Assembly (NCBI GenBank): GCA_001600815.1
Contig: BCKZ01000014.1
Location: forward strand, 372,001-436,000
Length of the DNA: 64,000 nucleotides
Direction: 5' to 3'
Source of the DNA: Alloascoidea hylecoeti
Taxonomy: Eukaryota
Made by a program: the position numbers and the translations under genes. Position 1 is the stretch's first letter. Every line of letters starts with the position of its first letter. Positions 13,984 to 53,711 of this stretch are shown in pieces. The notes under the pieces are model-generated. The model was not told the DNA's origin and ran no database searches. It was given only the letters and a program-made list of their open reading frames with translations.

Positions 13984-14958
13984 ATGGCTGGTAATAAAGT
14001 ATCAAATAGAAAAATCCTAACACAGGGTGATAATATATATGCTAGAAAGAAAGGTGAAAGATTTGGCGTCGATGAAGTTACTTTTGATAAAGGTGCAAGA
14101 TCGTATGTTTATTTTCTACAAATAACAATGGATTATCTCTTTATATAAATTGGCATAATAACTTACCTGAATATAGGGATTATTTAACTGGATTTCATAA
14201 GAGAAAATTAGCACGACAGAAGAAAGCACAAGAAAGTGCTAAAGAGATGGAAAGAAAGTTAAGATTGGAAGAAAGAAAAAAAGTATGTAAAATGAATTAT
14301 AAGAAACTTACAATTTCAAATATGACTCTTATTGTTAACGAGTGGCTTTATTTAGATAAGAGAAGAAAGAAAACGTGATATTGAGGAAAAACTGATGGAG
14401 TTGAAACAACTAAGGGATAACGAAGAAGAACTAGACGATGCCTCCGAAGATGAATCTAAAGAAGTTTCTGGTTCAAGCAAAACTGATAAAACTTCTCCTG
14501 CCTCTAAAGAATCAGCTACAAATTTTGCTTCCTCGGATGAAGAAAGTGAAGATGAAGATGAGAATATGTTCTCAGCTGAAGAGAAGAGTGGAAATGAGGA
14601 GGAGGATGAATGGGAAGGTATATCAGATGGGCCACCCAAAGGAGTTTTAAAGAAACATACTGAAATTTATGTATTGAAGCCTGATGCATCATCTTCCACC
14701 ACCGCATCATCTTCCACCACAGTTGAAATTGAGCCTATGGATCTAACTGGTGATATTAGAATAGACCCTTTTGTTCAACTAGAGAAATCTAAAGAAATTT
14801 TGGACGCTAGTGTTAAGCGCGCTGAAAAGTATGCTCAATTAATTGGAGCTGGGAAAAAAATAACTAAGAAAAGAAAAGTAAAATTTAGATACCTTACCAA
14901 GGGAGAAAGGAGAAGTAATAATGCTAAACAGAGGAAAAGGAAACCAAAACCATTGTAG
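13984..14958 (+). CDS. RRP17: rRNA-processing protein Rrp17 (Nop25 family); introns 14103-14176 and 14283-14355
   Basis: Spliced translation EVTFDKGARS/DYLTGFHKRKLARQKKAQ and C-terminal KFRYLTKGERR. GTATGT donors keep the frame. Confidence 0.9.
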
Positions 14959-23454: not shown

Positions 23455-25257
23455 TTAATCAAATTGAATATTATTATAAATGATATTAGAAGGAAAGTTA
23501 GTACTAGTATTTCCATAAATTGGAGATTCATCATTTGTAGCTAATTGATTCATGTTTAAAGAGGTTAAGGAATTTTTATAAGTCATATCTGAATTATTAT
23601 AGTCGATAAATGGATTAAATCCCGTTTGTAAAGTATCTTGGTCAACTTGTAATTGTATTGGTTGAAAATCATTAGTAAATCCAGAATTTGAATCATGAGA
23701 ATCATTCATAATATTAGTATTATAGGACGATTCATTATTATTTTGAAGTTGGTATCCATTTCTGTTATTCATATTAATATTCATATCTTGTGTCATTTGA
23801 CTTGAAATTCCAAATGGCATTTGTAATTGTTGAGATTGTAATTGAATCTGATGTTGTTGTTCTTGTAATTGTGAATCACAACTGAGTAAAACAGGTGGAA
23901 TTGATAAAGTTGATGAACATCTATGAGCAATTGATTTAACTTCTGTACTATTACCATCTGATCTAATATGTCTCTTCTTTGCAATATAGTTGGAATATTC
24001 AAAATGATTTGAATCTTTAATATCAGAAAAAGTAGGAATTGGTTGAGCATCTGTGTATTGACTATGATTTCTATGATTATGTAGACTAATATCTAATGTT
24101 GATATTGAGTTTTGATTTGCTGAAATTCTTGAATAAGGTGATTCATATTTATTTGCTGTTTCACGATCCTGATCAATATTATTTGTAAAACCATAACTAC
24201 TAAATTGAGGAGATGGTAAAAAAGAATCAAATGATGTTATTGATGGTGACGAGAATCCTAATGAAGGAGATGGTGATCCATTTCTTGATAATAATAAATC
24301 TCTAAAATCTTGTACTTCTTCAAAATCTCTATGAAGATTTTCTAAATTAGGTGTGTTATTATTTGATTCTTCATAATCATTTGTATTTATACTCTGTTGA
24401 AGAATTGCTTTCCCATCAGATGATATAGCCATACATAATTTTGAAGATCTTGAAATTGATGAAGTAAGAGATAATCCTCTAATTCTAGCTCCTCTTGAAT
24501 CTTTTGAATTTGAATTTAAGTTTAAGGAAAGGTTACTTGAAGTGAAAGATCGTTTTAACATTTTATGTTTAGTGGGTTTTGATGATGAAGATGATACATT
24601 AGTTGATGGGACAGAATTGGATTGCTCAGCTCTGTGGTTTGTTGTAGTATATTCATTCACAAACTTTTTATATGTATTTCGAGGTTTATTAACTTGACCA
24701 TTTGATGAAGATAAATCAACAAAAATATATTCTCGTGATGGGGCAAGAGATTTATATTCTGGAAAAGGAGGAGTTTTATTTAAACGAGTGGCTTCACTTA
24801 AAAATTTTGATTTACATCTTGAAGGAGAGGAATGATTACTTGTAGTATAACTGAAACCACCAGATTTATCCTTTTTAACTTTTGTTGGAGAACCACTTGA
24901 ACAGTTTTTAAATTGGAAGATTTTAAATCTTGAACTATTAGATTTTCCTTGTGGTGTTTTACGATCAGGAGTTTTATTCATTACATTATGATCTTTCTGA
25001 CTTGGAGAAGATTTTAAGTTTTTGGAGCTGGGATATTGTTGAAGATCTCCTGGCGTTAAGGTTATGGATGGATACGAGGGGATTTCCTTCATATCAGTAT
25101 TATCATGTTCAGAAATACTCTCGAAAGATTCCACGGATGATACGGAGGAGTTTCCCAACCAAGATCCGAGGGTGGAATTCGAATAATAGGAGAGAGGAAA
25201 ACCGGTTGAATTACTCAACTTCTTCAACGGTTTCTTTTGATCAAATGTTGTATTCAT
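23455..25257 (-). CDS. Uncharacterised S/N/Q-rich low-complexity protein (600 aa) with a probable 5'-UTR intron 25324-25259
   Basis: Long ORF with host-like codon usage and many SP/TP sites. No recognised domain. Confidence 0.75.
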   Translation of the reverse strand: MNTTFDQKKPLKKLSNSTGFPLSYYSNSTLGSWLGNSSVSSVESFESISEHDNTDMKEIPSYPSITLTPGDLQQYPSSKNLKSSPSQKDHNVMNKTPDRKTPQGKSNSSRFKIFQFKNCSSGSPTKVKKDKSGGFSYTTSNHSSPSRCKSKFLSEATRLNKTPPFPEYKSLAPSREYIFVDLSSSNGQVNKPRNTYKKFVNEYTTTNHRAEQSNSVPSTNVSSSSSKPTKHKMLKRSFTSSNLSLNLNSNSKDSRGARIRGLSLTSSISRSSKLCMAISSDGKAILQQSINTNDYEESNNNTPNLENLHRDFEEVQDFRDLLLSRNGSPSPSLGFSSPSITSFDSFLPSPQFSSYGFTNNIDQDRETANKYESPYSRISANQNSISTLDISLHNHRNHSQYTDAQPIPTFSDIKDSNHFEYSNYIAKKRHIRSDGNSTEVKSIAHRCSSTLSIPPVLLSCDSQLQEQQHQIQLQSQQLQMPFGISSQMTQDMNINMNNRNGYQLQNNNESSYNTNIMNDSHDSNSGFTNDFQPIQLQVDQDTLQTGFNPFIDYNNSDMTYKNSLTSLNMNQLATNDESPIYGNTSTNFPSNIIYNNIQFD

Positions 25258-33439: not shown

Positions 33440-34626
33440 CCCCAGATTCAGCAAATCAGATGGGTTGCTTATGTAATTAATGAGTGTAATTGTGCTTTCT
33501 ATTGCATAATCATTACGTAACTGTTCCCATAATCAATGATGGCCAGAACGAGCCTGTGGCTACTATTACTAATGGTATGTTTCTGAGTTATTCAAGAGAG
33601 AAAACCATCTACTGTTATTCATGTCCAGATCCTGTTGTATTATTAAGTGTAGTGTCACGGGAATGTCTCACCGATTATCACCGCCGAATGCATATGAAAA
33701 TGCACAAGAAACATGAGAATCATAAGAAGCACAAGAAAGATACTGACTATTCCTCGTCTTGCCACTAAAAGTACCATAGTAGCTATCTATTATTAATATT
33801 ATTGGTATAGCCCCGAGATTTATTTGTCATGATCTCGTACAGTTCCAAGCTTGCACTTGAAATTAAAAAAAAAATTAACAATCTTCTATAAAAAGTAATC
33901 CTTATAAATTTCCCCACATAAAGTAGATTAAAAGAACATGAAATTGGTTAACCGTGTTTAATTTAATTTCATAAGTTATCTTGATATTTAACTCTGTGCT
34001 TTTATCTTTATCTATATGTTGTGTAATATCAAACAAACTGTTAAATGCAATGCAACTCTTTGTTAAAACGATAATCACATTTAATTCTTTTTAATAAAAT
34101 ATGACCGTTCATACAGTACACTTTTATAAATATAATACCAAATAAAGATTGAGTATTTTAAACCATAACATGCTAATATTATAAATTGTACTCTTGGTTT
34201 TTATATCGGGTGAAGATTAAACTGGCGCTTTACTTTCGGGTCATCATCACATTCACATAAAAATGGGAAGATTATCATCAGTTATTGAATGTTCTACAAA
34301 TCTTGAGCTTTAAGATAGTTCATAATGTTCCGTAATCTATGTAACGTTTAGTATTTAGTATTTAGTATTAGCCCCGTTAACGCCATAAATAGCAGGGCAG
34401 AGAGAGTATTAATTTCCCTCATCTGTTCCAAAATCCAATTTACACCTTATGATAGGACTTACATCCAGAATTAATATTCCTCAGACTGTAAATATGTTTT
34501 GGATCAAAGGCCAAGTATGACTTTTACCATATATATACATGGATACCATTTACCCACCACACCCGGAGCCGCACCGACTGAGCATTCGTTACAATATCTC
34601 AAACGTTATGAGACGCACCCCAGTTT
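33440..34626. promoter_or_regulatory. Three Mig1/CreA-type sites (CCCCRS plus AT flank) in the HXT upstream region
   Basis: CCCCAGATT at 33440, CCCCACATA at 33912, CCCCAGTTT at 34618. Confidence 0.45.
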
Positions 34627-35117
34627 ATCTTTAAACCACATTCATTATATTCTTCCAATTCTTCACATTCAGGAAAGGGAAAGCCCTTAAGCTTTTACAT
34701 ACCAAGAATATTTCATATCAATACTTTTTTATAAAAGTTTTTATTATGGGTCTTTAAAATGATACCCGAATAGAAAAACCACCACACCAGCTTTAATTTT
34801 GCTGTACATAAGGATATGATACCAATTACGTATCAATCTAAACGGTCTTTTATAAGCTGTAACTTTGGATTAATGTACATCGTTAATATATTAATGCAAT
34901 TAGAATCATAAATAATGAACCAATTTTATATGCCTTTTTTCATTATCAGCATTTTAAATCTCTTTATATATAATGTTGCATTAACATGATGAACAATGCT
35001 TTTTAGCATTAATATTGATGATGATTTTTTTTTACTATAAATATAAATATAAATATAATCATTAATAGAGCCATTTATTTTCATTAATATTAATAAAATC
35101 TTTAACTTTCCCTTAAA

Positions 35118-36761
35118 ATGCCTACTTATTATGATGAATCAATTGATCCTCATGATCCAGATGATGATGCTTTTAATGATAAATTAACACCAAGTCATAC
35201 AGTTCAAAGTGTTCAACATAAATTAAATGTAGTTAAGCCAGAAGATCAATCAATACCAAAACCAAAATCTGCATATATTTTAGTTTCAATCTTTTGTCTT
35301 TTAACAGCATTTGGTGGATTTGTATTTGGTTGGGATACAGGTACAATTTCTGGATTTTTAAATATGACTGATTTTCAACAACGTTTTGGTGAGCCCAAAA
35401 AAGATGGTACTGGTTATCAATTTCCAAAAATTAGAACTGGTTTAGTTGTTGGGATCTTTAATGTTGGTTGTGCGATTGGTGGTGTTTTTTTAAGTAAACT
35501 TGGTGATATGTGGGGTAGAAGAAAAGGAATTATGTCAATTATGGTTTTATATATTGGTGGCATTGCAATTCAAATATCAAGTAATGAATTATGGATTCAA
35601 TATATGATTGGTAGAATTATTTCTGGTTTAGCTGTTGGTGGTATAGCAGTTATTGTACCAATGTTTATTTCAGAAACTTCTCCAAAACAAATTAGAGGTA
35701 CTTTAGTTTCTTGTTATCAATTAATGATTACAATTGGTATATTTGCTGGTTATTGTACAACATATGGTACAAAATCAAGAAATGATTCAACTCAATGGAG
35801 AATTCCTTTAGGACTTTGTTTTTTATGGGCAATTTTTTTAATAACTGGTATGATTTTAATGCCTGAATCACCAAGATTTTTAGTTCAAAAAGGTATGCTT
35901 GAAAAAGCAAGACAATCATTGGCAAGAATTAATAGAGTTTCACCAGAAGATACTTCAGTTTATGCAGAAATTGAAGAAATTGATAGTGCAATTGATTTTG
36001 AAAGATCTCAAGGTAAAGCAACTTGGGGTGAATTAATAACTGGAAAACCAAAAATTTTTAAAAGAGTTTTTATAGGTGTTGTTGTTCAATCATTACAACA
36101 ATTAACTGGTGCAAATTATTTTTTTTATTATGGTACAACAATTTTTAATGCAATTGGTATGGATGATTCATTTGTAACATCAATGATTCTTGGTGCTGTT
36201 AATTTTATAACAACATTTGGGGGACTTTATATTGTTGATAGATATGGTCGTCGAAAAGCTTTAATGGGTGGTTCAATGCTTATGTTTTCATGTATGTGTG
36301 TCTTTGCAGCAGTTGGTGTTACAAAACTTTATCCAGATGGTTATGATGGAGAAACAAGTAAAGCAGCTGGAAATGTAATGATTTTATTTACATGTCTTTT
36401 CATTACTGGATTTGCAACAACTTGGGCACCAATTGCATGGGTTGTTGTGGCAGAAACTTATCCAGTTCGTATAAGATCAAAAGGAATGTCAATTGCAAAT
36501 GCAGCAAATTGGTTATGGGGTTTTGTAATTTCATTTTTTACACCTTTTATAACTGAATCAATTCATTTTTATTATGGTTTTATATTTGCTGGATGTTTAT
36601 TATTTTCAATATTTTTTGTTTTTATGTTTGTGCCAGAAACAAAAGGTTTAACTTTAGAACAAGTTGATGAAATGTATGCTTCTGGTGTATCTGCTTTTAA
36701 ATCTGCTTCTTGGGATTCTCAAAAAGTTTATAAAGATATGGAAAGTAAAGATTATGATTAA
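35118..36761 (+). CDS. HXT: Hexose transporter (HXT family)
   Basis: [50 protein letters not shown]. Confidence 0.95.
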
Positions 36762-39066
36762 TATTAATTAAAGATTAATTAAAATTTAAAGATTATGAAT
36801 AAAATGAATAAAATTATAAAATTGAAAAATTGAAAAAAAAAAAAAAAAGTATTTTAGTGAGCTTGAAACTAGCTAATATTTATTATTTATTGTCCTTTTT
36901 TGTTTTTCATATTTCTATAAACTATAGGTGTGTGCACCTATAATATAGATCAAATTAGAATAATATTAAAGAGGAAGTAGTTGAATACAAACAAAACTAA
37001 TAAACATAAGTATTAATAGAATATTATTACGTTGGAATGAACCCATAGAATATTGTCAACGGATAACAGTGTAGTGACATGTAAAATTACATGAACAAAT
37101 TCTAGTGAATCGCCAATTTACATAATCCATGAAAGGGCGTCCCCAGCCGAAATGGTTCTTCCTCCGGAAAGATTAATGGAAAATGACTGGGGAATATTAT
37201 ACTATTATCTAAATATCTCAAAAATTAATAGACAACAATTACCAAAAGAAAAAAAAAAAAAAAAGTGCCAGTGGTAGAAATAAAAGAAGATACTAAAATA
37301 CTAAAATACTCTCAGAAATAGAAATGGCGAATTCATATTTTTGTAAAATGGCAAATTATTAATCTTCTTGGTGAACAACATTTTTGGATGAGAAATCACG
37401 AAATAACTTTATACAAATGATGTACTTCTTGATAGCGATCTGGTCGAAAAATTACTATACATCCAAATTCCGTAATATATTGAAACTAATTAGCGATATC
37501 TGGACCACCGAGGAAACAAGTTTATTCTCCACGGATTGTTCAAATTATGTCAACAAAAATGACGCTTTTGTCGACCCAATTTATGTCAAAGCAGCTGACG
37601 AAACAAAAAGAAAAAAACTAATGAAAATATATGCCACCAGGGTAACCTGAATTTTAATTACCAATACCTACTTTACAGACACTTCAGTGATGAACATCAC
37701 CTTATGACGAATCTGGACAAGAAAAATTTCACATCATTGCTGTCTTAGTATTCTTAAAATTATGCAAGGTATCCTAAACGGCAGTTGCTATGTTTCTAAT
37801 ATAACTTCAATTAAATTCTTATCATATGGTATATCAAAATATGAGTAAAATTTATTAATGTTATAATAATATATCTATATTCAGAATGAAACAAGATATG
37901 GCATTGTGGTGTAGCTATACGCGTAATTAGCCTAATGTAAACCTGAGGGAGATAAAATTGATAAAGATTATACTCTCAATGAATATAGAGAGGAAGGGCC
38001 ACTTACATAGGAGGTATTAGACCTAAGAAAAAGTAACACATACACCAGAGCACCATTAGAAATATTAACGGGAAATGATTGGAGCATACTAAATATCTGA
38101 AAAAACAATTTACTACATGAGTTCTTCATTTAAATAGTTTCTAGTTAGTTTTTTTTAATTGGAGATTATATAAAAAGTTTGAAAGGAAAATCCACCTACT
38201 TCTTAATCTCAAATATATCTATTGGGTTGTGGTTCCTCTAATTATGTATTAGCTATAGCATGATCATTGTTCTCAGTCAAATTCCGTAGTTATTATTATG
38301 ATGGTAAGGAATATATTACTTGTTTCAAGAGTCATTTGGTCCACCTTTTTCATCATGTTTAGGAACACACAACACAAAAGTAATACGTTCACAACATTAA
38401 CTCAACTAATGAGAATCAATTAGCCGTAAGACGTAAGTTATAACCTATTAGTACTTTTAAAAAGATGTCATAATATAGCTATAGCTAGTATTGCAGTGAT
38501 ATCAGAAGAAAACATGAATTTTTTTGTTTAGAAGTTGAAAGTAAAAGAGTGTGAATATAACCATATAGGCTGAGTTTCGGTCGGCTATCAGTCCTATAAA
38601 TATAACAAATGAAAGATTAGTTATAGATCTATATGGGGTTTGAAGATTTTCATATTATCGAAGTAAATAGTTTCTAGATAGAATTCTGAAAAGTTTAAAA
38701 AACCTTAGTATTCAGTGATACTGGTGGGCTATTTTGTCATTCTTCTTTTAGCACATTAATTAGTCACACTTGTGTTGCTTTAGGGCTACTAAATAAGATC
38801 AAGATCGCAATCACATTATCAATTATATGCAATTCAGGTTCATTTTAGAGGTAAATATTCGTATCAAAAGGCAAAAAAGTGTATTTAGCTACGATATAAT
38901 ATAATTAATCATCTAAATGTTATATTTATTATTAATTCATATAATTAAGTCCTAGCTATTATATAAATGATTTGAGTTTTTTTTCATATATTATATCTCA
39001 TGTACCTGCATATCTTCTTTCTTCAAAGAAAAGTTATCATCATGCGAATAATTTCAGTTCCGTATC

Positions 39067-40332
39067 TCAATGATACTCTGGTAACAGATGTTCTGGTAAA
39101 TACCTTTCATTTATATTAGCGAGATTATATAAAAATGAACCTTCAATAAAATCGTAGTTTCCTTCCTCATCCTTTAAATATAAATTGAGAAAGGTGTCTG
39201 GATCAACAATGGGGTCACAATAAGTGAAAGGTATTAAATCGCTATCAGTTTCATCATCAGTTTCTAACAAACACGTTGTTGGTGTCTCTATAAATAAGCT
39301 CTGCAATTTTAATTTTGTCGATACGGTAGAAAACTTAGATGATAGGATAAGTACTATAGTATCTCGAATTGAAATCAGTGCATCTGCACACTTTGGGAGA
39401 TTGTCGTTATAGGGTTGTGCAAAGTTATAAAACGCACAAACAATAAAATAAAAATTCGAAATAAGCGAAAAATATTGAGCTAATAATAACTCAAATTTAA
39501 TACCATTATCAATATCTGAAGCAAGCGCATAGAAGTCAAAACCACCTATAACCCACGTATCATTGAATTCCTTATTTTCTGGCCCAAAGTCCAATAATGA
39601 ATTTGAGTAGTTACTCATAAAAAGTATTATCTTCTTATAAAAATAACAAATTGTAATAAGATTTTTGTTAATCATTGTGATATACTCCAAATAATTATTG
39701 TTTAATGTTAAGTCTATTTCTGAAGGATTCACCGTTAAACCATTATTTGTTAATGTGGTTTCTTCTAAATTAAAGTAATAATTGTTAATATCATTGGAAA
39801 TGCAGCGTTGTGTCCTAGATGAAAGAGCAGATTTTGTGGAAACCGTTATTAGTGCCATTTCTAAAAGGTGGTTTGCTCTCTTTTGAATTATCCTGTCATT
39901 CTCCTTGTGTAAATTAATTAATTTAACAATATAATCTCTACTTTGTCTGTCGATTTGATTAGCTTCGTATTTAGCAGTTATATTGAATGGATTTACAGAT
40001 GACTCTGTACTTCTTAATACTAAGCTTCCCATCTTAATTGTAGGTGCAGCAAAAATATTAAGATATGAATATGGAGGAGGATTAGTCTTTGGATAATCAT
40101 AATGATCACTATGGGTATTGTTTTCGGAATTCAGTGAAGTATTTAAATTGTCTTTACCAGTATTCTCTGGTGCATATTTAATTTCAGTTGAATTTGAAGA
40201 AACAAAATTTGTTTGATTGTTTGAAATTGAAGCAGTTATAACACCAGTATCAATATTATTCGAACCTTGACCAGTAGTTAAAGGTTCATCATTGTGAGTC
40301 TCGTTAATATTTTTCATCCCTTGATCAGACAT
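39067..40332 (-). CDS. Orphan protein, 421 aa, disordered N-terminus with PPPY motif followed by a probable helical domain
   Basis: Intact 1.27 kb intronless ORF with ATG in an A-rich context. No recognised homology. Confidence 0.7.
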   Translation of the reverse strand: MSDQGMKNINETHNDEPLTTGQGSNNIDTGVITASISNNQTNFVSSNSTEIKYAPENTGKDNLNTSLNSENNTHSDHYDYPKTNPPPYSYLNIFAAPTIKMGSLVLRSTESSVNPFNITAKYEANQIDRQSRDYIVKLINLHKENDRIIQKRANHLLEMALITVSTKSALSSRTQRCISNDINNYYFNLEETTLTNNGLTVNPSEIDLTLNNNYLEYITMINKNLITICYFYKKIILFMSNYSNSLLDFGPENKEFNDTWVIGGFDFYALASDIDNGIKFELLLAQYFSLISNFYFIVCAFYNFAQPYNDNLPKCADALISIRDTIVLILSSKFSTVSTKLKLQSLFIETPTTCLLETDDETDSDLIPFTYCDPIVDPDTFLNLYLKDEEGNYDFIEGSFLYNLANINERYLPEHLLPEYH

Positions 40333-41383
40333 ATTTATTAATATTTAAATTCCAACGGTATGAAGAAAAAAGTATAGGTTTATAGTGACTGAAGTTGTAG
40401 AAATGAAGAGCTAAGGAATAAAAAAAAACTTATACACCGGAAAAGGCAAGGGCAACCATACCAATAGGCTATATTCTGTATTTGGTATATGCATAATATA
40501 AATAATTAGAGTTTTAAAATTAAATAACTAGAGTCTTGACCATCAGCAAATATATTTTCAACCCGGTACATGCATAACTATTGGCCATACATTATTGTAA
40601 CTGTGAATAGCTAACTTCTATATTAATATTTATCTCTAAGATTAAATCTCACCACTGTCCTTCTTTTTCCGCCGCTCATTATGATCATGATAAATAGTCT
40701 TAACACATTTATATGCGGTATTTGAATGCACGTATAATTCATTTGGATTGATGCATACTCGAAAACCTTAAATTAGAAAGCTTAGGCTTAAAAAAAATGC
40801 AACATCCGTCAACTGCAATTGCAAATTTTAAAGGGTTCTAGTTTTGTGTGTAGTACTGTACCTAACAAAGGATAATAGTTACGTCTAGAACTGGAAGAGG
40901 AGACAATAATTAATTTTAAATACCCTTAATTAGCTTTAAAGTGTTATACTAGCTTATCATTTATACTTCCTATAAGTCAAATGTCTAAGCTGATATTAAT
41001 GAAAAAGTTTCATTCTACCAATAATTAAGTTTAATACCTGATTACAAGACTGTACACAATGTAGGATACATATACTATTCAAAATTTCATATTATTTAAA
41101 AATGGACTCTGCAGATATGTAATATCTACTTTTAGCTATTCTCTGACTTGGCTGCATAACTCTACCACTGTACATTTTGGAAATACAATTTGATGGCTGA
41201 GCACTGTTCTATCCTATTTTGTATATATATATATCAATTGCATAATACTGTTCGACTATTAATTTGATATGTATCAGGAAGGTATAACAATATATATTTA
41301 TAGCCACAAAAACTAGCAAGCGCCAGAATAATCTCTATATTAGCTTCACACTTCTAAAAAATAATTTCAACCCTTTTTCTATC

Positions 41384-42532
41384 ATGTCCACCATTTATAA
41401 TTATAGAATAATGCCTAACAATACTGATTACGGTATGGATATAGATGTTTTAAAGAAAGCAAAAAAGTTCTTTACTGTTTCACTGTGTTATCAGGAACCT
41501 GTGGACATCAATAACCATATAAGAGTTGGGCTAAGTACTGAGGCCAAATTTAAAATGACAAATACTTTTGTCGGTACGTTCAACGATCCTGAAAGATCCA
41601 CTGTGAACTTTTATTCGGAGTTTTGCGATCTTTCACCATTAACAAAATACATCCACCAGCCTGATAAAAAAAAGTTAAGTACTAAGATTACCATGTCCAC
41701 GTTATACAGTATACTAGTGATCGATACTGAGCTGAAAGCAGTTCCTAGTGTGAATTTTAATAGTATTTCAATATCTATTGCAGATCATGAGCCTTCAGAC
41801 TCCGGGATTATTCATCGATTATACCCAAATATTATATTATCTCAGCGAATGGTGGAAAAGCGTCTTTCAGTCAAAGATAAATATAAAATAGAAGAGTTAC
41901 TCTTAGGTCTTATGCATGTTATAATGGAAAAGTTTGAATTTCAATATCTGCAAACCACAGATGGCCATGTAATGAGTTGTAGAGGTTCAAAATATGGATA
42001 CACTATAATTCCTCCTGGTATAGTAAATATGGTTGGTAACAATGATGTTGGAGAGATAGAGAGTTACAGTCATTGTACTCTTTCTAAGGTGTTAAAAGAA
42101 TTAAAAGAATTTGCGTCTATGCAAGGAGTGGGTCGCAAGAAAGTTGTGCCCAAAACCCTGGAGAGGTATCCACACACAACTACTGATCAGGTATCAAGAA
42201 TTAAGAGAGCATATGATATGAACCCATATGACCGAAATAGACATACATTAGAAAATGATCAAATAAACCATCTTATTGCTGTTTTCAAAATTGAAGATAA
42301 ATATCTTGGGTTAACTAATCTGATGAAAAATATAAATCATTACTTGGGTAACTTCAAGGGACTTATAGAAATTGACTTAGATCGTTTCATGAAAAGTACT
42401 GAATTCCTAAGATGGGTTGCATCCTTACAACCTGTAGTTGGTATTTACAATAATGGTTCACAGAAAATATCAAACATGAAGAAATATTCAAATACCAATC
42501 GGAAAATCAAAAAGTCTGTTAGATTCGCATAA
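41384..42532 (+). CDS. Orphan protein, 382 aa, C-terminal basic tail ending KKSVRFA
   Basis: Intact 1.15 kb intronless ORF of globular-looking composition. TATA-like TATATATTTATA and GCCACAAAAA lie 70-95 bp upstream. Confidence 0.7.
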   Translation: MSTIYNYRIMPNNTDYGMDIDVLKKAKKFFTVSLCYQEPVDINNHIRVGLSTEAKFKMTNTFVGTFNDPERSTVNFYSEFCDLSPLTKYIHQPDKKKLSTKITMSTLYSILVIDTELKAVPSVNFNSISISIADHEPSDSGIIHRLYPNIILSQRMVEKRLSVKDKYKIEELLLGLMHVIMEKFEFQYLQTTDGHVMSCRGSKYGYTIIPPGIVNMVGNNDVGEIESYSHCTLSKVLKELKEFASMQGVGRKKVVPKTLERYPHTTTDQVSRIKRAYDMNPYDRNRHTLENDQINHLIAVFKIEDKYLGLTNLMKNINHYLGNFKGLIEIDLDRFMKSTEFLRWVASLQPVVGIYNNGSQKISNMKKYSNTNRKIKKSVRFA

Positions 42533-42613
42533 TTAATATTTTTTGTTATATCAGGTTTAACCGTTGTTACGCCAGCTATATCTAAATTGTTTCTATAATC
42601 AATCAATTCATGG

Positions 42614-42771
42614 ACTTTTTTTCATCCGTACAACCACATAATATTTCCACTTATATATATAAACTTAACAATCCAATATTGATTCCAAATTGTAATTTCA
42701 AGTTATATATTTATATGTAGTATTTAATATATATAAGCGGAAATATTATGTGGTTGTACGATGAAAAAAGT
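42614..42771. repeat. Long imperfect inverted repeat (~46 bp arms, ~66 bp spacer)
   Basis: 42614-42660 actttttttcatccgtacaaccacataatatttccacttatatatat versus reverse complement of 42727-42771 acttttttcatcgtacaaccacataatatttccgcttatatatat. Confidence 0.92.
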
Positions 42772-43431
42772 GTCACGAAATACTTTCAGACAAACTTTTT
42801 ATTAATATACATATGCATATGCCTATTTGTATTCTCCTAATAAAATTTTAAATGTATTTATATTAGTAATTTATAGTTACGTAAATATTTCCCTCTTATC
42901 ATTTTGAATATGTTTTTCAATACTATAAATACTTTATAAAATGATTTCTTTTATGATTATATGTTATAGAATATAACTTAGAGCTAAAGTGGATGTCACG
43001 CTCCATGTCTAGATATTTTCCACCAGCAATACTGTTGAATAACAATATAGTCAATTTATATAATTTTATGTTTTCCATTTTCTATGATTTTGTAGCTATA
43101 GATTTACAATGTGTTTTATGAAAATAATATATATATAAAATCAGTAGTTCAACAAAGATAAATATCAAAAAATTAAAAGCTTTAAGGAAGCTCAAGACAA
43201 TTCTAAATCTGACATAAATTTTAAGCGTCAGATCTAGATGGAGAAATCAGAGACCATTATTTATGAGTTGCCTTGTAGTTAGACTATACCGATCTCCAAA
43301 ATTATCTCATTTTATACTTGTATTTAAGATCTAGATTGATGTAAGTATTCTATTTGTATATTCCTTTCAATAATACATAGTGTTTCTCAATATTTCTTGT
43401 AAATTCATTATGGTGATAGGGTTAATCTATC

Positions 43432-45094
<1,663 letters not shown>

Positions 45095-45204
45095 TTTGGC
45101 GGAGTGGAACAAAAAAGCTTTCTTTATGAAAGGTTTCATGTATCTTTTTTTTTTCAAATCTGTTTTTCCTTTTGTGTTAAGCTTTCTTTGTAAAAAGACG
45201 TTAG

Positions 45205-45236
45205 CACGTGAGATGAATTTTTGCTAATGTTACCCG
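45205..45236. promoter_or_regulatory. Bidirectional TGT/ELP4 promoter: CACGTG, PAC/RRPE-like GAGATGAATTTTT, Reb1-like TTACCCG
   Basis: Motifs cluster in the 205 bp between the two ATGs. Confidence 0.6.
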
Positions 45237-45299
45237 CACTTCAACCAAACCTCCAAATGATCCAAAAAAAAAATTATCAAGTTTTTATAAAAACCAAAA

Positions 45300-46742
45300 A
45301 TGTCATTCAAAAGAAAAGGGGTTGTTATAAATGCCGATAGATCAGATAGACAAACTCAGCAAATACCTGGATCTCCAGTTTCCAGCCCAATTTCTCGTGG
45401 AAATATACGAACACCAATACAATCACCTAGAGGTATAGCATCTCCTTCATCTTTACGATCACCACCTTCATTTATTTCTCCCAATAGAAATATACGCCCA
45501 ACACCTCCTCTATCCAATCAATTGAATAATTTACATCTAAGAAATCAAAAAAAAGAGGAAAGCATTCCACATATTGGAGTTAGACCTTCGTTAATCACAT
45601 CTCAACCAACTATTTCAACAGGCTGTAATGACCTTGATAAACTATTAACTCATCAAGGATTACCCCTGGGGTCGATCTTATTAATTGAAGAATCTGGGAC
45701 CACGGATTTTTCAGGTGTTTTATTACGAAACTTTGCATCTCAAGGTGTGATCCATCAACGTCTTGTTACATCGGAAAGTTCAAAAAATTTAGGACCACCA
45801 ATTCATAAAAATTCTCCAGAAACCCATGTTATTGTTGTTGGTGTTGATAATTCATGGGGTAGAGATTTACCAAGTGTTTATAAAGAAAGTGGCCGAAATG
45901 CCAAAAAAATATTAGCACAGGAAGAAACATCTAAAATCACTGTTCAAAATATGATTGGTAATAATAGCGGTAATGAACGTGAAACAAAAAATTTAAAAAT
46001 TGCTTGGAGGTATGGATTAAAAAATGAATCTTCATCTTCATCTTCACCACCGCCATCCACCGCTTCTTCAAATTCTAGCCATTATAATAATATATTTGAT
46101 ATTAAAACTCGGTTATTACCTTCACCTTCTTCAAATGAAGTAACTTGCTTACCACCGAATATAACTCCAAATCAAAATATTTATTTCACAACCATAATTG
46201 AAAGGATTAAAAATATAATTAAAACTCAAAATCAACATTCAAATTCAAATTCAAACTCCAATATATTTAGAATTATTATTCCAAATTTATTACATCCTGC
46301 AACATATCCTCCAACATGTTCAACCCCATCCAAAATTATACCATTCTTACATGAACTTCGAAGTTTAACACGTCTTTATCCAACTCAAATATCAATAATT
46401 ATATCTTATCCATTAGAATTATATTCTAAAAATCAATCAATTACAAAGTGGATTGAAAAAATCTCAGATTCAGTTATTCATTTAGAACCATTTAATGAAA
46501 GTTTAATGAAATTAATTGAAAAATCAAATAATTCAAATATATTACCACAAAAAGATTTACAACAAGGATTTGTAAATATTTATAAATTACCAATTAGTAG
46601 TGAAAGAGGACAAATGGAAATCAGAAAAAAAGAATTAGCGTTTAGAAATGGCAGAAGACAATTTCAAATTGAAGAATGGGGGATTCCTGTTGAAGATAAT
46701 GATGATGAAAATATTAATACAACAATAAATTTAGACTTTTAA
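45300..46742 (+). CDS. ELP4: Elongator subunit Elp4
   Basis: MSFKRK, GVRPSLITSQPTISTGCNDLDKLLTHQGLPLG, EESGTTDF, LKIAWRY, FQIEEWGIPVE, C-terminal LDF. Confidence 0.94.
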   Translation: MSFKRKGVVINADRSDRQTQQIPGSPVSSPISRGNIRTPIQSPRGIASPSSLRSPPSFISPNRNIRPTPPLSNQLNNLHLRNQKKEESIPHIGVRPSLITSQPTISTGCNDLDKLLTHQGLPLGSILLIEESGTTDFSGVLLRNFASQGVIHQRLVTSESSKNLGPPIHKNSPETHVIVVGVDNSWGRDLPSVYKESGRNAKKILAQEETSKITVQNMIGNNSGNERETKNLKIAWRYGLKNESSSSSSPPPSTASSNSSHYNNIFDIKTRLLPSPSSNEVTCLPPNITPNQNIYFTTIIERIKNIIKTQNQHSNSNSNSNIFRIIIPNLLHPATYPPTCSTPSKIIPFLHELRSLTRLYPTQISIIISYPLELYSKNQSITKWIEKISDSVIHLEPFNESLMKLIEKSNNSNILPQKDLQQGFVNIYKLPISSERGQMEIRKKELAFRNGRRQFQIEEWGIPVEDNDDENINTTINLDF

Positions 46743-47458
46743 ATATATTATAAACTATTACCATATTATATTGATGGTCATAAAAATATCAATGATCAAC
46801 TGAAAAACTTTTAAGCGTTTTATATATCCCAATTCTTTTCACTCTCAACTGTAAAATATAATGATACTCTAGATATTGTATCTTATTCAGGACCCATTTT
46901 CTGCTTCTCTAGGCTATAAATCCTAATTAGATCATACTTCATCTTTTTACATTCTAGCAGTTCAATAAGTATATAGTAGACAACGACACTGTAATTAATG
47001 GTGTAATCACAAATATGCTGAATAGGGGGACGAAAGATATGTCAAGCAGAAATATATGAGAAACCCCAAAATAATTAATAATATTTCATCACCCAGGAAG
47101 CCGATTATGAATTTCCAAAGTGACGAAATTATCCCTCCTTTATGGTGAATTCAGAGTGCAAAAACTGCATAAATTTATGAAAACATGCAAAACCAGTTCA
47201 GTATTCTTTAGCGAAGCTAACTATAATACAATTCATACTAAAAGATATATCAAAGATACAAAATAACATCTTATAGATACTTTAGTTACTGTTACAGATT
47301 TATACACTACATGATCATTATGAATAGATATGAGTTATGTAAAAATTATTTATATACAATATTTTCATTTCTAATTTTTAAATATGGTTTTGCCTTCCCA
47401 AAATATTAGGTATCATTATATGGATGTGAATATATGAAGGTGAATGAATTATAAAGAA

Positions 47459-48328
47459 CTAATGTTCAATATATTGTTGTTTAATTTCCTTTTCAGTTGG
47501 TGTAAAATTTATAGCAGTATCAGGAGAGATTTGACCATCACCATTATAATGTGCTTTGAAAAAAGTATAATGTAAAACAATATCTTGAACATTTCTCAAT
47601 TGTGGATCATTGGCAAATTCAGGATCTAAAAAGAAAAATACTGGCATATCAACTTCTTCACCAGCTAATAATTTTTGTTCTTCAAAACAAAAACATTGAA
47701 TTTTATTAAAATATTGGGCAGCAATTTCAGGAGTTACTGAATATGTAGCCATTCCAATTATATCTTGATCCGAGTTATTTCTTGCTTTATAAAATGCTAA
47801 AGCTGTTTCACCTGGTTTAACCCTTACATTTCTTTGTTGTGGAGTAAATTTCCATGGTAAGATTGCACTTGTTTCACCGCTAAAATTAACAGTTATTCTT
47901 TTATTTGTATCAACTGGGATTAGTTTATCTCTTGTAAATTTTGATGAGTCAGTAATTGGAGTACCAGCCCAACCAGTTCTTTGACAGATAGCACGATAAA
48001 CAGGTACAGCAGCATAACCTAAAGCTAAGAAGAAAACACCAATAGAAGCAACATAATAGGCAGCGGTTGCAGATCCCTTTCTTTGCTGTTTTTCTTTTAG
48101 TTTTTGAATGAGAATTCTTTTTTCATTTTCTGGTAGAGAATTCACCCATTCTTTAAGATCAGCTTTGCTATGTGGTTCCGTTGAAGCATATCTTTTCTTT
48201 ATTAGTAATGATGTGGAGGTTTGTTTTAGGGAAGGATATGAAGATATTAGCAAGTTACTGTTCAGTTTCGGACTCAATCTGGATGTGAATGGTAGTCTTG
48301 TGAATGGTGTTAATACTGAAGCACGCAT
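47459..48328 (-). CDS. COX11: Cytochrome c oxidase copper chaperone Cox11
   Basis: YAAVPVYRAIC, PGETALAFY, YFNKIQCFCFEEQ, mitochondrial presequence. Confidence 0.97.
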   Translation of the reverse strand: MRASVLTPFTRLPFTSRLSPKLNSNLLISSYPSLKQTSTSLLIKKRYASTEPHSKADLKEWVNSLPENEKRILIQKLKEKQQRKGSATAAYYVASIGVFFLALGYAAVPVYRAICQRTGWAGTPITDSSKFTRDKLIPVDTNKRITVNFSGETSAILPWKFTPQQRNVRVKPGETALAFYKARNNSDQDIIGMATYSVTPEIAAQYFNKIQCFCFEEQKLLAGEEVDMPVFFFLDPEFANDPQLRNVQDIVLHYTFFKAHYNGDGQISPDTAINFTPTEKEIKQQYIEH

Positions 48329-48457: not shown

Positions 48458-49561
48458 ATGAGCGAAAAGAAACGGCGCAAAGTAGCCAAAGCCTGTATTT
48501 ACTGCCGACGGTCCCACATGCCATGTGACGAGGGCAGACCATGCCAGCGGTGCATCAAACGGGATATCGCTCACCTGTGCAGGGACGATGCTGCTCTCCA
48601 GGCCCCCCAACAACAGCCACAACAGGTACCCCAGGTACCCCAGGTTTCCCAGGTGTCCCAAGGGCAGCCCCAGGTCCCCCCACAGATCCCTCAGGGGCCG
48701 ATGAACCAAATGCTGCAACCCATGATTTCCTACAATATGAACATGAGCAGACCCATTTTCTACTCCGAGCAGGCAAATGCCGAGTTTTCGTCCTTGAATG
48801 ATTTCTTGGCCCTGATCGATGACCCTGTGGATATCGCCTCGCTGACCTCTTTGGAGTACCCTCTTCCACCCTCCCGCACGCACCCTACCACCTTCGACAT
48901 ATCCGACTCCGCACGGGATAAGTTCTTTCTAACTGCGGCTGACCCTTCTACCGAAATATCCCCTGAGGAGCGACTCAAACAGGTTATACAGGCAAAACTA
49001 GAAGCTGGCCTACTTCAACCTTTTAATTATGCCAAAGGATATGCCCGCTTACAAAAATATATGGATAATTATATGAATACATCGTCCCGTCAAAGAATTT
49101 TAAAACCATTATCAATATTTAGACCAGCATTTCGTGCAATTGCCAAAACTTTAAAAGATGTCGATTTAGTACTTGTTGAAGAAGCATTTGAAAGAATGTT
49201 ATTAGATTACGATAGAGTTTTCACTTCAATGGCAATACCTGCTTGTTTATGGAGACGTACTGGTGAAATATATCGTGGTAATAAAGAATTTGCTGGTTTG
49301 GTTGAAGTTTCTGTTGAAGATTTAAGAGATGGTAAATTAGCAATTTATGAATTGATGAGCGAAGAAAGTGCTGTTAATTATTGGGAAAAATATGGTGATA
49401 TTGCCTTTGATTCTGGTCAAAAGGCTGTTTTAACAAGTTGTAATTTAAGAACAAGAAATGGTAGGAAAAGAAAAGCTTGTTGTTTTAGCTTCACAATTAG
49501 AAGAGATAGATATAATATTCCAAGTTGTATAGTTGGAAATTTTATACCCATACATCCATAG
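48458..49561 (+). CDS. RDS2: Zn2Cys6 gluconeogenic transcription factor Rds2/AcuM
   Basis: ACIYCRRSHMPCDEGRPCQRC, FFLTAADPSTEISPEERLKQVIQAKLEAGLLQPFNYAKGYARL, IPSCIVGNFIP. Confidence 0.93.
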   Translation: MSEKKRRKVAKACIYCRRSHMPCDEGRPCQRCIKRDIAHLCRDDAALQAPQQQPQQVPQVPQVSQVSQGQPQVPPQIPQGPMNQMLQPMISYNMNMSRPIFYSEQANAEFSSLNDFLALIDDPVDIASLTSLEYPLPPSRTHPTTFDISDSARDKFFLTAADPSTEISPEERLKQVIQAKLEAGLLQPFNYAKGYARLQKYMDNYMNTSSRQRILKPLSIFRPAFRAIAKTLKDVDLVLVEEAFERMLLDYDRVFTSMAIPACLWRRTGEIYRGNKEFAGLVEVSVEDLRDGKLAIYELMSEESAVNYWEKYGDIAFDSGQKAVLTSCNLRTRNGRKRKACCFSFTIRRDRYNIPSCIVGNFIPIHP

Positions 49562-50228: not shown

Positions 50229-51905
50229 TTACTTTTCGATATCAATATCCAAGCTCTTTGATTTTGTAGACGATTCAGGAACAAGAAAGAAAACAAATAA
50301 AACAGAAAATATTAGTCCAAGACAAATAATCATATTATAATAATAAACCCCAATAACTTCAATCAAAAAAGGTGAAAAATAAGTAACAAAAGCTGCTGTG
50401 AACCAACTTGTTGAATATGAAAATGAATTTAATGTTTTGTTTAATATCGAAAAGTTAACCAATGTCTCCTCACAAATAGTACTCGAGGTAGTTCCCCAGA
50501 AAGCAGAATATGCAAACACATAAGAACATATAAGCCCGAAAATTGCATCACCGATTAATATGTGATTTTTTGCATTTAAAAAACCGAGTCCTAATACCGA
50601 GGATGAAAGCAGACATAAAAACATAGTTGTGGAACCAAAAATTAAAATTAATTTTCTTTTCATTTTAATAGTAAGTAATCCAATAATAATTCCAAAGAGA
50701 TAAACTGCTGTAATAATCATCATCAAAATAAATGGATCATTATTAATATGACTATTACTAATAGTAATATTTTTGATAATCTCAGGGAAATAATGTAAAA
50801 GAAAATGAATACCTGTTAGTTGCTCGAAGAATTGAATACCAATACAAGCTATTAATTTATAAGTCACCTTTTTGTCTGAGAACACTATCATTGATAATTT
50901 TCTTAATCCTTTAAGGGAAAGAGGAACAGATAATACATTTTTATCTTCATCTTGTTTAGATATTTCTAATATTTGACACTGGACTGTTAAATCATGAATA
51001 TCTAAACCCATTGCTTTTCCAAGGTTCAATCTAGCTTTATATTTCTTATCAATTGTTATTAAATATACTGGAGACTCAAATGAAAATAAAACCCCAATTA
51101 TAACAATAGTAGACCAGACAAGAGAAAGAAGTGTTATGAATTTCCATTGACTATAATAACCAATATCAATTTTGATATTTTCTGTAAGTTTAATNAACAG
51201 AGCTCCACTGAACATGCCAAAGGAACTTATAATATGGAAAAGATTAAGCGATAATTGACAAATAGATGGAAATGAATTTTCAGCTATCAATTCTCGACAA
51301 ACAATAGTCAAAGTTCCAGCACCAACTCCAGTCAGAAATCTTCCATACATAATACCTGAATAATCCATTTCATAATCAGGAGTTAAAAGAATTTGAACCA
51401 ACATTCCAATATCATAAATTGCTACACCCAATAAAATACACAACTTTCTTCCCATGGAGTCACTGAGTCTTGAAACTCCGGCAGAACCAACAGCGGCCCC
51501 AACAGCGAAAATAGCAATTATTCCACCCATATTTTGGTGAGAAAATTTAAACTCTTTCATATAGAATAGTCCACCGATNGTACCGAAATCCCAGAAAATA
51601 ATAAATCCTCCAAAAGATAACATAACACAAAGTACAAGATTAATAAAGTATCTGGAATATCTTATTGAATTTTTTGACTCCTCTTCTTTATTAGAACAAA
51701 ATAATAAAGANTCTANGTCNNTTTTNGNNAAACCNTTATAAACAGTTTCTTCGTTGATTTTCAATTCTTTTTTGTGATGACCAGAGGTGGTCGAAAATGA
51801 AGAGACAATAGGGTTTGAATCTTGATCCAAATCGACTTCCTCAAAGGTCTCCTGTTCAATATTTCTCGAATCAGAACAATTAGAGGATGGTTCTTTAGAA
51901 GACAT
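50229..51905 (-). CDS. Highly diverged sugar porter, HXT14-like (contains Ns)
   Basis: FGGFIIFWDFG, SDSMGRK, ESPVYL, FEQLTGIHF, FFLVPES. First ATG (MSSKEP) is at 51905. Confidence 0.8.
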   Translation of the reverse strand: MSSKEPSSNCSDSRNIEQETFEEVDLDQDSNPIVSSFSTTSGHHKKELKINEETVYXGXXKXDXXSLLFCSNKEEESKNSIRYSRYFINLVLCVMLSFGGFIIFWDFGXIGGLFYMKEFKFSHQNMGGIIAIFAVGAAVGSAGVSRLSDSMGRKLCILLGVAIYDIGMLVQILLTPDYEMDYSGIMYGRFLTGVGAGTLTIVCRELIAENSFPSICQLSLNLFHIISSFGMFSGALXIKLTENIKIDIGYYSQWKFITLLSLVWSTIVIIGVLFSFESPVYLITIDKKYKARLNLGKAMGLDIHDLTVQCQILEISKQDEDKNVLSVPLSLKGLRKLSMIVFSDKKVTYKLIACIGIQFFEQLTGIHFLLHYFPEIIKNITISNSHINNDPFILMMIITAVYLFGIIIGLLTIKMKRKLILIFGSTTMFLCLLSSSVLGLGFLNAKNHILIGDAIFGLICSYVFAYSAFWGTTSSTICEETLVNFSILNKTLNSFSYSTSWFTAAFVTYFSPFLIEVIGVYYYNMIICLGLIFSVLFVFFLVPESSTKSKSLDIDIEK

Positions 51906-53102: not shown

Positions 53103-53711
53103 ATGAAAGATTATGAGATCGATTACAAGTTGGAAGCCCAAATAATCCGTCGGTATGAGGCATGGGAGAACCACCAATATCAGATAGAAGTGGAAGAAGA
53201 AAAGACGAATGAGATTCAAAAACTTGTGGAACCTTTATCTAATATATGTATAAGAACTTCGAACGGGTTCGTTATTTCTCCTAATAATAGTAAGAACGAA
53301 ATTAATCCAAACACATATAAGGTCGGCTCCAATGTTACTCCAACAGCATGCGGGTCAAATGACCACCAAGNCCAGAATCAACAAAACAAAAAGACAGAGA
53401 GAAAGTCAGATAGTTTAAAGAATAACTCTACCGATAGTACTAATACNAGCTCCACTGGTATATCTGGAGCCCCGGTTGAAATTAATTCGAATATTTGCCC
53501 ATATTGTCAAACTTTCTCGAAAAGCAAACAATTTTGTACCACTCCATTTGGTCTTGTCTGTAATCCATGTGGATTACACTGGAAAAGATGTGTAATAAGA
53601 TTGAAGACACAATTAAGAGCCAGACAGTTCTTTGATTGGAAAATAAGAAACAAGATGCAACTCAACAGAAGAATGAATCTTGTAGATGAATTCGAAAGAT
53701 TTTTTCTTTAA
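53103..53711 (+). CDS. Small GATA zinc-finger protein, Gat3/Gat4-like
   Basis: C-x2-C-x17-C-x2-C: CPYCQTFSKSKQFCTTPFGLVCNPCGLHWKR, followed by a short basic tail (ARQFFDWKIRNK...RR). Confidence 0.75.
   Translation: MKDYEIDYKLEAQIIRRYEAWENHQYQIEVEEEKTNEIQKLVEPLSNICIRTSNGFVISPNNSKNEINPNTYKVGSNVTPTACGSNDHQXQNQQNKKTERKSDSLKNNSTDSTNXSSTGISGAPVEINSNICPYCQTFSKSKQFCTTPFGLVCNPCGLHWKRCVIRLKTQLRARQFFDWKIRNKMQLNRRMNLVDEFERFFL

Follow-up and report, generated by a model that had tools for sequence, protein, structure and literature searches.

What are two long genes without recognisable relatives doing head-to-head in a yeast genome, and do they belong to the host or to something that spreads through it? 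The question arises in Alloascoidea hylecoeti (assembly GCA_001600815.1), in a 64,000-nt stretch of contig BCKZ01000014.1 (positions 372,001 to 436,000) that we call the window and whose numbering we use throughout. Between a sugar-transporter gene and a gene labelled TGT lie two divergent open reading frames (ORFs), here ORF A and ORF B, in which an initial annotation had seen an orphan pair and a candidate sporulation-specific or selfish two-gene module. The answer we prefer, at a probability of roughly 0.55, is a divergently transcribed host gene pair drawn from two unrelated, species-restricted and fast-diverging families, which have been duplicating and mostly decaying. The parts of the locus are as follows:

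39067-40332, minus strand: ORF A, 421 aa, a complete ATG-to-stop frame in the standard code
40333-41383: spacer of 1051 bp, the presumed bidirectional promoter; its longest ORF from an ATG is 39 aa
41384-42532, plus strand: ORF B, 382 aa, a complete ATG-to-stop frame in the standard code

Both ORFs are real protein-coding genes. At the composition of the window, the chance of an open frame is ~1e-15 for 421 codons and ~3e-14 for 382 codons, 50 shuffles of the window gave no stop-free frame longer than 159 codons, and a host codon table scores the annotated frame far above the other five for ORF A and ORF B alike. Lengths beyond those of the shuffles, together with the best codon frame, mark them as genes and not as chance frames, and the initial annotation's description of two intact ORFs of 421 and 382 aa arranged head-to-head, with start codons separated by 1051 bp, holds. 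Their codon bias is weak, as it is for several other ORFs of the window: the scores per codon are 0.11 (ORF A) and -0.03 (ORF B), against 0.29-0.58 for four other window ORFs, two with a Pfam family and two without. The two proteins have no similarity to one another (hhalign probability 0.2).

Nothing in their composition marks the pair as foreign or recently acquired, since the G+C content at third codon positions (GC3; 0.24 and 0.30) falls inside the window's range of 0.08-0.39 and the local G+C content of 0.29-0.35 around the pair does not break from its surroundings. A foreign origin by composition is ruled out on these grounds. The window as a whole is 69.4% A+T and has a gene content typical of budding yeast, its long single-exon ORFs including a sugar transporter, a P4-ATPase, kinases, ELP4/PAXNEB, COX11 and DSC3.

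We searched widely for relatives of both genes. Pfam holds no significant family for either protein, and at E<=10 the only sub-threshold match is Dabb for ORF B, at 15.8 bits against a cut-off of 25. PDB sequences gave nothing at E<=10 for either protein and the ESM Atlas nothing usable for either. A word-indexed search of 5.8 billion proteins, which like the profile search below covered lengths of at least 231 aa for ORF A and at least 210 aa for ORF B, returned ORF B itself alone among 1361 candidates, and ORF A itself plus one other protein, P0003, among 2888. A profile of these last two sequences recovered the same two among 5445 candidates and found nothing in Pfam or PDB; for P0003 by itself, DUF5418 (E=0.21) was sub-threshold noise in Pfam at E<=10. 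When phmmer compared ORF B exhaustively with 1.84 billion representatives, three matches came back: itself and two short proteins, P0005 and P0006. Among metagenome contigs, 389 and 232 pattern matches for the pair were found and none was confirmed by tblastn; among IMG/VR viral contigs, none of 49 and 29 was confirmed. Within the window, tblastn detected no second copy of either gene.

The few relatives that do exist are informative. P0003 (427 aa) is the one intact relative of ORF A, at ~35% identity, and it may be encoded by the same genome or by that of a relative. Only residues 181-420 of ORF A align to it, with 86 of 248 positions identical (E=3e-29), and the identities gather in invariant blocks: KFELLLAQYFSLI..N.YFI..AFY, then IPFTYC.P..DP, then NINERYLP...LP.Y. 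Identity of 35% that is distributed in blocks requires that purifying selection has acted over a long time on ORF A's C-terminal half. On the side of ORF B, P0005 (102 aa) is 56% identical over residues 284-381, and P0006 (70 aa) is 64% identical over residues 123-164, mapping to 41750-41872.

A new observation is that the pair has further copies, and that these lie in the same genome. Contigs of four sequencing runs were aligned to 34000-48000 of the window at >=80% likeness. Three of the runs (X1, X2 and X3) come from three studies, bear the same organism label or the same sequence, and may include the source of the window itself. They contain the window's own contigs, with 0-1 differences, and they also contain other contigs, of similar depth, that match parts of the pair. 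Two of the stretches matched are:

41748-41863, plus strand: ORF B segment, residues ~122-160 including SDSGIIHRLY, with ~84% identity in at least three other contigs; it corresponds to P0006
38473-38871: 3' flank of ORF A, matched piecewise by one other contig in each of X1, X2 and X3

A contig of 2830 bp matches ORF A in collinear pieces joined at 39233/39426, 39456/39979, 40080/40178 and 40231/40989, the last of these joints extending into the spacer; its piece 39979-40080 has 24 differences and 6 gap letters. Contigs of 387, 1687 and 1332 bp each match the ORF B segment with 15-19 differences, and one of the three also matches the spacer up to 41164. A further contig, of 7632 bp, matches 42369-42527 with 9 letters left out and 6 put in, exactly as in the alignment of P0005, which it encodes, and compared with ORF B it has 2 nt inserted at 41999. 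This shared pattern of insertions and deletions, together with the mapping of P0006, indicates that P0005 and P0006 are encoded elsewhere in the same genome. Likeness is not confined to coding sequence: the spacer stretches ~40989-41026 and ~41112-41164 are common to paralogous contigs, and the match to the 3' flank of ORF A, with insertions or deletions at 38473 and 38871 and a joint from 38526 to 38852, suggests that the duplicated unit may reach to the left of the interval first reported.

Judged from these contigs, the genome has, beyond the pair itself, no fewer than three to four loci that resemble ORF B and at least one that resembles ORF A, the latter closer to ORF A than P0003 is. The extra copies look broken, because the protein searches found no further ORF B-like protein of at least 210 aa and no third ORF A-like protein of at least 231 aa. 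Among the contigs listed, the window is the only place where an intact A and an intact B were seen together. A second haplotype or a hybrid subgenome was considered as the source of the extra contigs and is ruled out, both by the TGT interval (43340-45207), which in X2 has a depth of 58.9-61.2 and no second copy, and by the presence of at least three distinct contigs with 41748-41863. In X3, which is a metagenome, the summed contig depth is ~0.3-6 over most of 36802-45207 against ~10-34 on the flanks, and the word index of this run contains all sampled words of 38800-43000; the dip could reflect two strains or contig filtering and is not interpretable from contigs.

These results change what the pair can be called. 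The term orphan, used in the initial annotation, holds in that no relatives lie outside this genome's runs and fails in that paralogous copies lie inside the genome. Its description of the proteins as unrecognisable and fast-evolving agrees with the lack of a detectable orthologue in Pfam, PDB and the protein searches, and the outcome that was to refute its reading, single-copy syntenic orthologues of known genes, did not turn up: no orthologue was detected and the two ORFs are multicopy. As to copy number, the contigs show that the pair is not single-copy and has broken-looking copies. The four runs that hold the stretch carry the pair essentially unchanged (one differing letter over a 6.7-kb piece in X1, none in X2), and no presence/absence difference was seen across these four runs, which are possibly not independent strains. 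A multicopy pattern with broken copies also fits a duplicating or selfish family.

What might the two proteins do? Short sequence features are the available guide, and the following bear on function:

39427-39498, minus strand: best-conserved block of ORF A, residues 279-302, KFELLLAQYFSLISNFYFIVCAFY, from the P0003 alignment and hydropathy
40069-40080, minus strand: PPPY, ORF A residues 85-88, a PY motif in the N-terminal tail
39073-39084, minus strand: LPEY, ORF A residues 417-420, a PY-type motif at the very C-terminal end, within NINERYLPxxxLPxY
42512-42526, plus strand: KSVRF, ORF B residues 377-381, matching an RVxF-type regular expression and retained in P0005 (KKSVRF)

ORF A is acidic, with a net charge of -24. 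Its residues 1 to ~120 are rich in asparagine, serine and threonine and of low complexity, residues ~129-350 are predicted to be helical in a low-confidence model, and a small C-terminal region follows. Its sole hydrophobic segment, residues 282-300, belongs to the first of the invariant blocks and reaches a Kyte-Doolittle 19-residue maximum of 1.67, borderline for one span; the surrounding block of residues 279-302 could form either one membrane-spanning helix or a helix buried in the core. ORF B is basic, with a net charge of +13 and a lysine-rich C-terminal tail ending in KIKKSVRFA. A low-confidence model shows it as mixed alpha/beta, and its hydropathy profile contains no hydrophobic segment (Kyte-Doolittle 19-residue maximum 1.11).

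The PY motif noted in the initial annotation is the PPPY at residues 85-88 of ORF A, and there is a second. Defined as [LP]PxY, following PMC10721834, PY motifs are rare: they number 6 in the 11,067 aa of window ORFs, and 2 of these are in ORF A; the other 4 fall in 10,646 aa, and the expectation for ORF A is about 0.16. The two motifs differ in their conservation. P0003 has LPPY aligned to the LPEY of ORF A, so that a C-terminal LPxY is conserved, and the PPPY is not conserved in P0003. The PPPY codons are at the edge of 39979-40080, a stretch matched at ~76% by another contig of the same genome. The KSVRF of ORF B is a weak lead, because the RVxF-type expression is common in window ORFs (22 matches in 11,067 aa). 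RVxF is the docking motif of regulatory subunits of PP1 (Glc7), and P0005, which keeps KSVRF, may be a pseudogene fragment.

How might the pair be controlled? The spacer holds three short elements that face one gene or the other:

40838-40848, minus strand: CACAAAACTAG, directed toward ORF A from 506 nt upstream of the ATG; includes the Ndt80-type core CACAAAA
41305-41316, plus strand: CACAAAAACTAG, directed toward ORF B from 68-79 nt upstream of the ATG
40669-40674, minus strand: CGGCGG, directed toward ORF A from 337 nt upstream of the ATG

The sequence gNCRCAAAW is the consensus of the middle sporulation element (MSE) of Ndt80-regulated genes, and in other yeasts factors of the Ndt80 family govern non-meiotic programmes as well. 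With the two bases that precede it, the site facing ORF B is a full GNCRCAAAW match at 41303-41311, 73-81 nt from the ATG. The outward-pointing CACAAAA(A)CTAG pair reported in the initial annotation is present in a 1051-bp spacer at the positions it gave, and we regard the extended word as a possible promoter element common to both genes. CGGCGG, a G+C-rich hexamer, is found 6 times in the window where 0.87 would be expected, and 2 of the 6 are intergenic. The two intergenic occurrences, at 40669-40674 and 33681-33686 (both minus strand), lie 337-383 nt upstream of the ATG of ORF A and of a DUF4336 gene, respectively. CGGCGG resembles the URS1/Ume6 core, and we take it as a lead only.

We can now sketch how the host pair that we favour may work. 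ORF A and ORF B would be transcribed divergently from the shared 1.05-kb spacer and could be co-regulated through the pair of CACAAAA(A)CTAG elements in it that point outward and have a core of the type bound by Ndt80-family factors. ORF A may serve an Rsp5/Nedd4-type ubiquitin ligase as client or adaptor, engaged through its PPPY and its C-terminal LPxY, and it is tempting to suppose that an acidic ORF A and a basic ORF B act jointly.

Four results weigh against this reading, or at least against its regulatory and functional parts. First, the pattern CACAAAAN{0,1}CTAG has 2 matches in 64 kb, both in the spacer, against 0.07 expected, and at least 2 matches arose in 0 of 100 shuffles, but this statistic is post hoc and overstated, because the pattern was read off these same two sites. 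Second, the shorter core shows no enrichment: the window has 42 occurrences of CRCAAAW, where 53.0+/-7.4 are expected and 95 of 100 shuffles reach at least 42, and 4 of GNCRCAAAW, where 7.7 are expected. A core at or below chance weakens the MSE argument and makes two of them in a 1-kb spacer unremarkable, and the MSE-like sites of the initial annotation are accordingly retained as sites that are present and face both genes, not as an excess of their core in the window. Third, both AlphaFold2 models are unusable, with a mean predicted local distance difference test score (pLDDT) of 29.9 for ORF A with P0003 and 30.6 for ORF B alone and with essentially no residues at pLDDT >=50 (one, in ORF B only), and no fold backs any function. 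Fourth, one intact module among decayed copies, with similarity that includes the flank, is equally expected from a mobile or selfish element.

That last point leads to the alternative that survives best, although we consider it unlikely. The pair could be a relic or domesticated cassette of ~4 kb, derived from a mobile element, a plasmid or a virus, that spread by transposing or by integrating repeatedly and of which the window holds the last intact 'master' copy while the other copies decay. The unit would consist of the 3' flank of ORF A, ORF A, the spacer, ORF B and perhaps a hairpin, as a terminal or processing structure. The hairpin is the long inverted repeat past the right-hand ORF to which the initial annotation drew attention, and it is borne out:

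42613-42774: inverted repeat or imperfect palindrome of 162 bp, with arms at 42613-42663 and 42724-42774

Its arms are 51 nt long and 84% complementary around a 60-nt loop, and of the 14 inverted repeats that the settings used detect in the 64 kb none is longer. Folded as RNA it reaches -61.6 kcal/mol (z=-10.95, none of 200 shuffles as good), and folded as DNA it has z=-10.2. It starts 81 nt past the stop codon of ORF B and ~660 nt beyond that of the TGT gene, a position that would place it in the 3' region of ORF B if transcribed. Rfam returned nothing at E<=0.1 for 34000-48000. A 16-nt segment of the spacer, 41177-41192 on the plus strand, is 88% complementary to 42686-42701 in the hairpin loop; this pairing is probably due to chance, being one of 56 inverted pairs in 4.8 kb.

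A cassette would account for several dispersed and mostly broken-looking copies (P0005 at 102 aa, P0006 at 70 aa, the 2-nt insertion at 41999), for a similarity among copies that passes beyond coding sequence into the spacer and the 3' flank, for the window's strongest inverted repeat abutting the unit, and for the lack of relatives in any other organism in the protein searches. However, no Pfam family of transposase, integrase, reverse transcriptase, recombinase or polymerase appears even at E<=10 in ORF A, ORF B, P0003, P0005 or P0006. The unit is not enclosed by a terminal inverted repeat: pairs that span it are at best 17-25 nt long, A+T-rich and 75-84% complementary, and a 22-nt core taken from the hairpin arm recurs nowhere else in the window. 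In composition and codon usage the pair resembles its host, IMG/VR viral contigs contain nothing of it, and a protein identity of 35% between copies implies an old family and not a recent burst.

Slightly less probable again is that the two ORFs represent known, conserved yeast genes, for instance fast-evolving meiotic, kinetochore, Mediator-tail or mitochondrial-expression factors, which in an isolated lineage have diverged so strongly that their orthology has passed beyond detection by sequence. Isolation of the lineage does seem likely: X9, a run from the same study that comes from another, related organism, matches even the conserved neighbours of the pair only in pieces of 35-131 nt at >=80%. 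Unrecognisable proteins are also common in this lineage, with 3 of the 17 other tested window ORFs lacking a Pfam family at E<=1e-5. These three are at 23455-25257 (minus strand, 600 aa), 14395-14958 (plus strand, 187 aa) and 53103-53711 (plus strand, 202 aa), and the 600-aa and 187-aa ORFs have no Pfam family even at E<=0.1. Conserved blocks beside unalignable regions, as in both proteins of the pair, are likewise what fast-evolving essential factors display. On the other hand, factors of this single-copy kind would not usually leave several decayed copies in one genome, phmmer, run exhaustively with ORF B, brings up no known gene, and the profile of ORF A and P0003 finds nothing in Pfam or PDB, though it was built from only two sequences.

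A selfish killer module, one of the readings offered in the initial annotation, is improbable. By it we mean a poison gene and an antidote gene acting in meiosis, with PY motifs routing the antidote through Rsp5-dependent ubiquitination, in a family that would expand and decay in the manner of drivers. The multicopy, rapidly diverging family with its broken copies and single intact pair would suit it, as would two PY motifs in ORF A where about 0.16 are expected and Ndt80-type cores that face both genes. According to PMC10721834, PY-dependent neutralisation is established for the wtf antidotes. Set against this are an architecture unlike that of wtf, an N-terminal PPPY that P0003 does not share, an MSE core that is not enriched, and no presence/absence polymorphism across the four, possibly non-independent, runs. 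The fullest version of this idea is a longer shot still. It would make the locus the intact master copy of a two-gene selfish module of a kind new in budding yeasts, with a basic ORF B and an acidic, PY-bearing ORF A as a killer/protector or drive pair, meiotically co-induced via the paired elements and spreading and decaying through the genome, its 162-bp hairpin marking the 3' boundary or feeding small-RNA control.

Finally, that the two frames are not genes at all, being chance frames or recently dead pseudogenes, can be dismissed as very improbable: low-confidence structure models and weak codon bias (0.11 and -0.03 per codon) would be in keeping with it, but a frame-length probability of ~1e-15, a correct frame that scores far above the other five and the blockwise conservation in P0003 bring it close to refutation for ORF A.

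The genes that flank the pair are:

35118-36761: left neighbour, a Sugar_tr transporter (Pfam E=5.3e-161)
43432-45139, minus strand: right neighbour, the gene labelled TGT, in exon pieces with ~6 short introns

Of the HXT and TGT flanks named in the initial annotation, the transporter is upheld by its Pfam match, and the TGT label is provisional, being carried over from that annotation's reading of the translation. An ELP4/PAXNEB gene (Pfam) comes after the TGT-labelled gene. The introns of the TGT-labelled gene are roughly 55-90 nt long, with GTAAGT, GTATGT or GTACGT donors and CTAAC-, CTAAT- or CTGAT-like branch sites; the window's genes are mostly long single exons, unlike this intron-split one. 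The 2.3 kb that separate ORF A from the transporter hold no frame of more than 91 codons and no Pfam match. The 91-codon stop-to-stop frame at 37375-37650 on the plus strand (77 aa from its ATG, no Pfam match) might represent a small gene or an exon, or might be noise. No tRNA is close to the pair.

Farther out, the window region seems rich in old duplicates. Four Sugar_tr ORFs fall within 64 kb, a region rich in duplicated transporter genes, and three sugar-transporter ORFs are full-length (11660-13165, 35118-36761 and 50229-51905). The ORFs at 7918-8997 and 48458-49561 have an ERT1/acuK PAS domain, the zinc cluster being absent from the ORF as listed. The window contains 12 N letters, the first at 51195, 51579, 51711, 51716 and 51720, inside the transporter ORF 50229-51905.

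How, then, does the pair compare with systems that are already known? That an 'orphan pair' is multicopy, with decayed copies, is a new fact, and it turns a vague curiosity into a testable question. The comparison that the initial annotation had drawn was with the wtf killer meiotic drivers of fission yeasts. As described in PMC10721834, these are single genes with two isoforms produced by alternative transcription initiation, both multi-transmembrane, and PY motifs in the antidote-specific cytosolic tail provide a PY-dependent neutralisation. Our pair resembles them as a multicopy, rapidly diverging family with many decayed copies and with candidate meiotic promoter elements. It differs in consisting of two unrelated divergent ORFs instead of one gene with two isoforms, and in having no hydrophobic segment in ORF B and at most one borderline segment in ORF A, in contrast to multi-transmembrane isoforms. 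No wtf homology appeared in the protein searches, which gave no match beyond the proteins themselves, P0003, P0005 and P0006. With two unrelated genes and no multi-pass membrane protein, the wtf analogy does not stand as regards architecture. The absence of a multi-pass membrane protein, of the one-gene, two-isoform arrangement and of homology lowers the chance that the pair is a wtf, not that it could drive. Were the minority reading true, the locus would be the first poison-antidote-like or driving module of two soluble proteins in a budding yeast and a new use of PY motifs outside wtf.

A second comparison is with the PY-bearing clients and adaptors of Rsp5/Nedd4 ligases, which ORF A resembles in its PPPY, placed in a predicted disordered tail, and in its conserved C-terminal LPxY. 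The Rsp5 adaptors Bsd2, Ear1/Ssh4, Rcr1 and the arrestin-related proteins have recognisable domains or clear membrane spans. ORF A differs in having neither a recognisable domain nor a clear membrane span, and its binding to a ligase is a prediction from the motifs. A third is with the Ndt80/MSE middle sporulation genes. Here CACAAAA lies upstream of both ORFs and is oriented toward each, as in those genes, whereas the core is no commoner than chance (42 against 53 expected in the window) and the ORF A site is as far as 506 nt upstream.

A fourth comparison is with the species-restricted, dispersed multigene families of yeasts, which evolve through duplication followed by decay and which the pair matches in having no outside homologue, in its diverged copies and fragments, and in its host-like composition. 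If the host gene pair that we favour is the right answer, the locus adds one more such species-restricted yeast family, and provides a well-delimited case in which two orphan families are placed head-to-head and have been duplicated together. It is in this that the pair departs from the dispersed families: two unrelated families are linked head-to-head, with a similarity among copies that includes the spacer and the flank.

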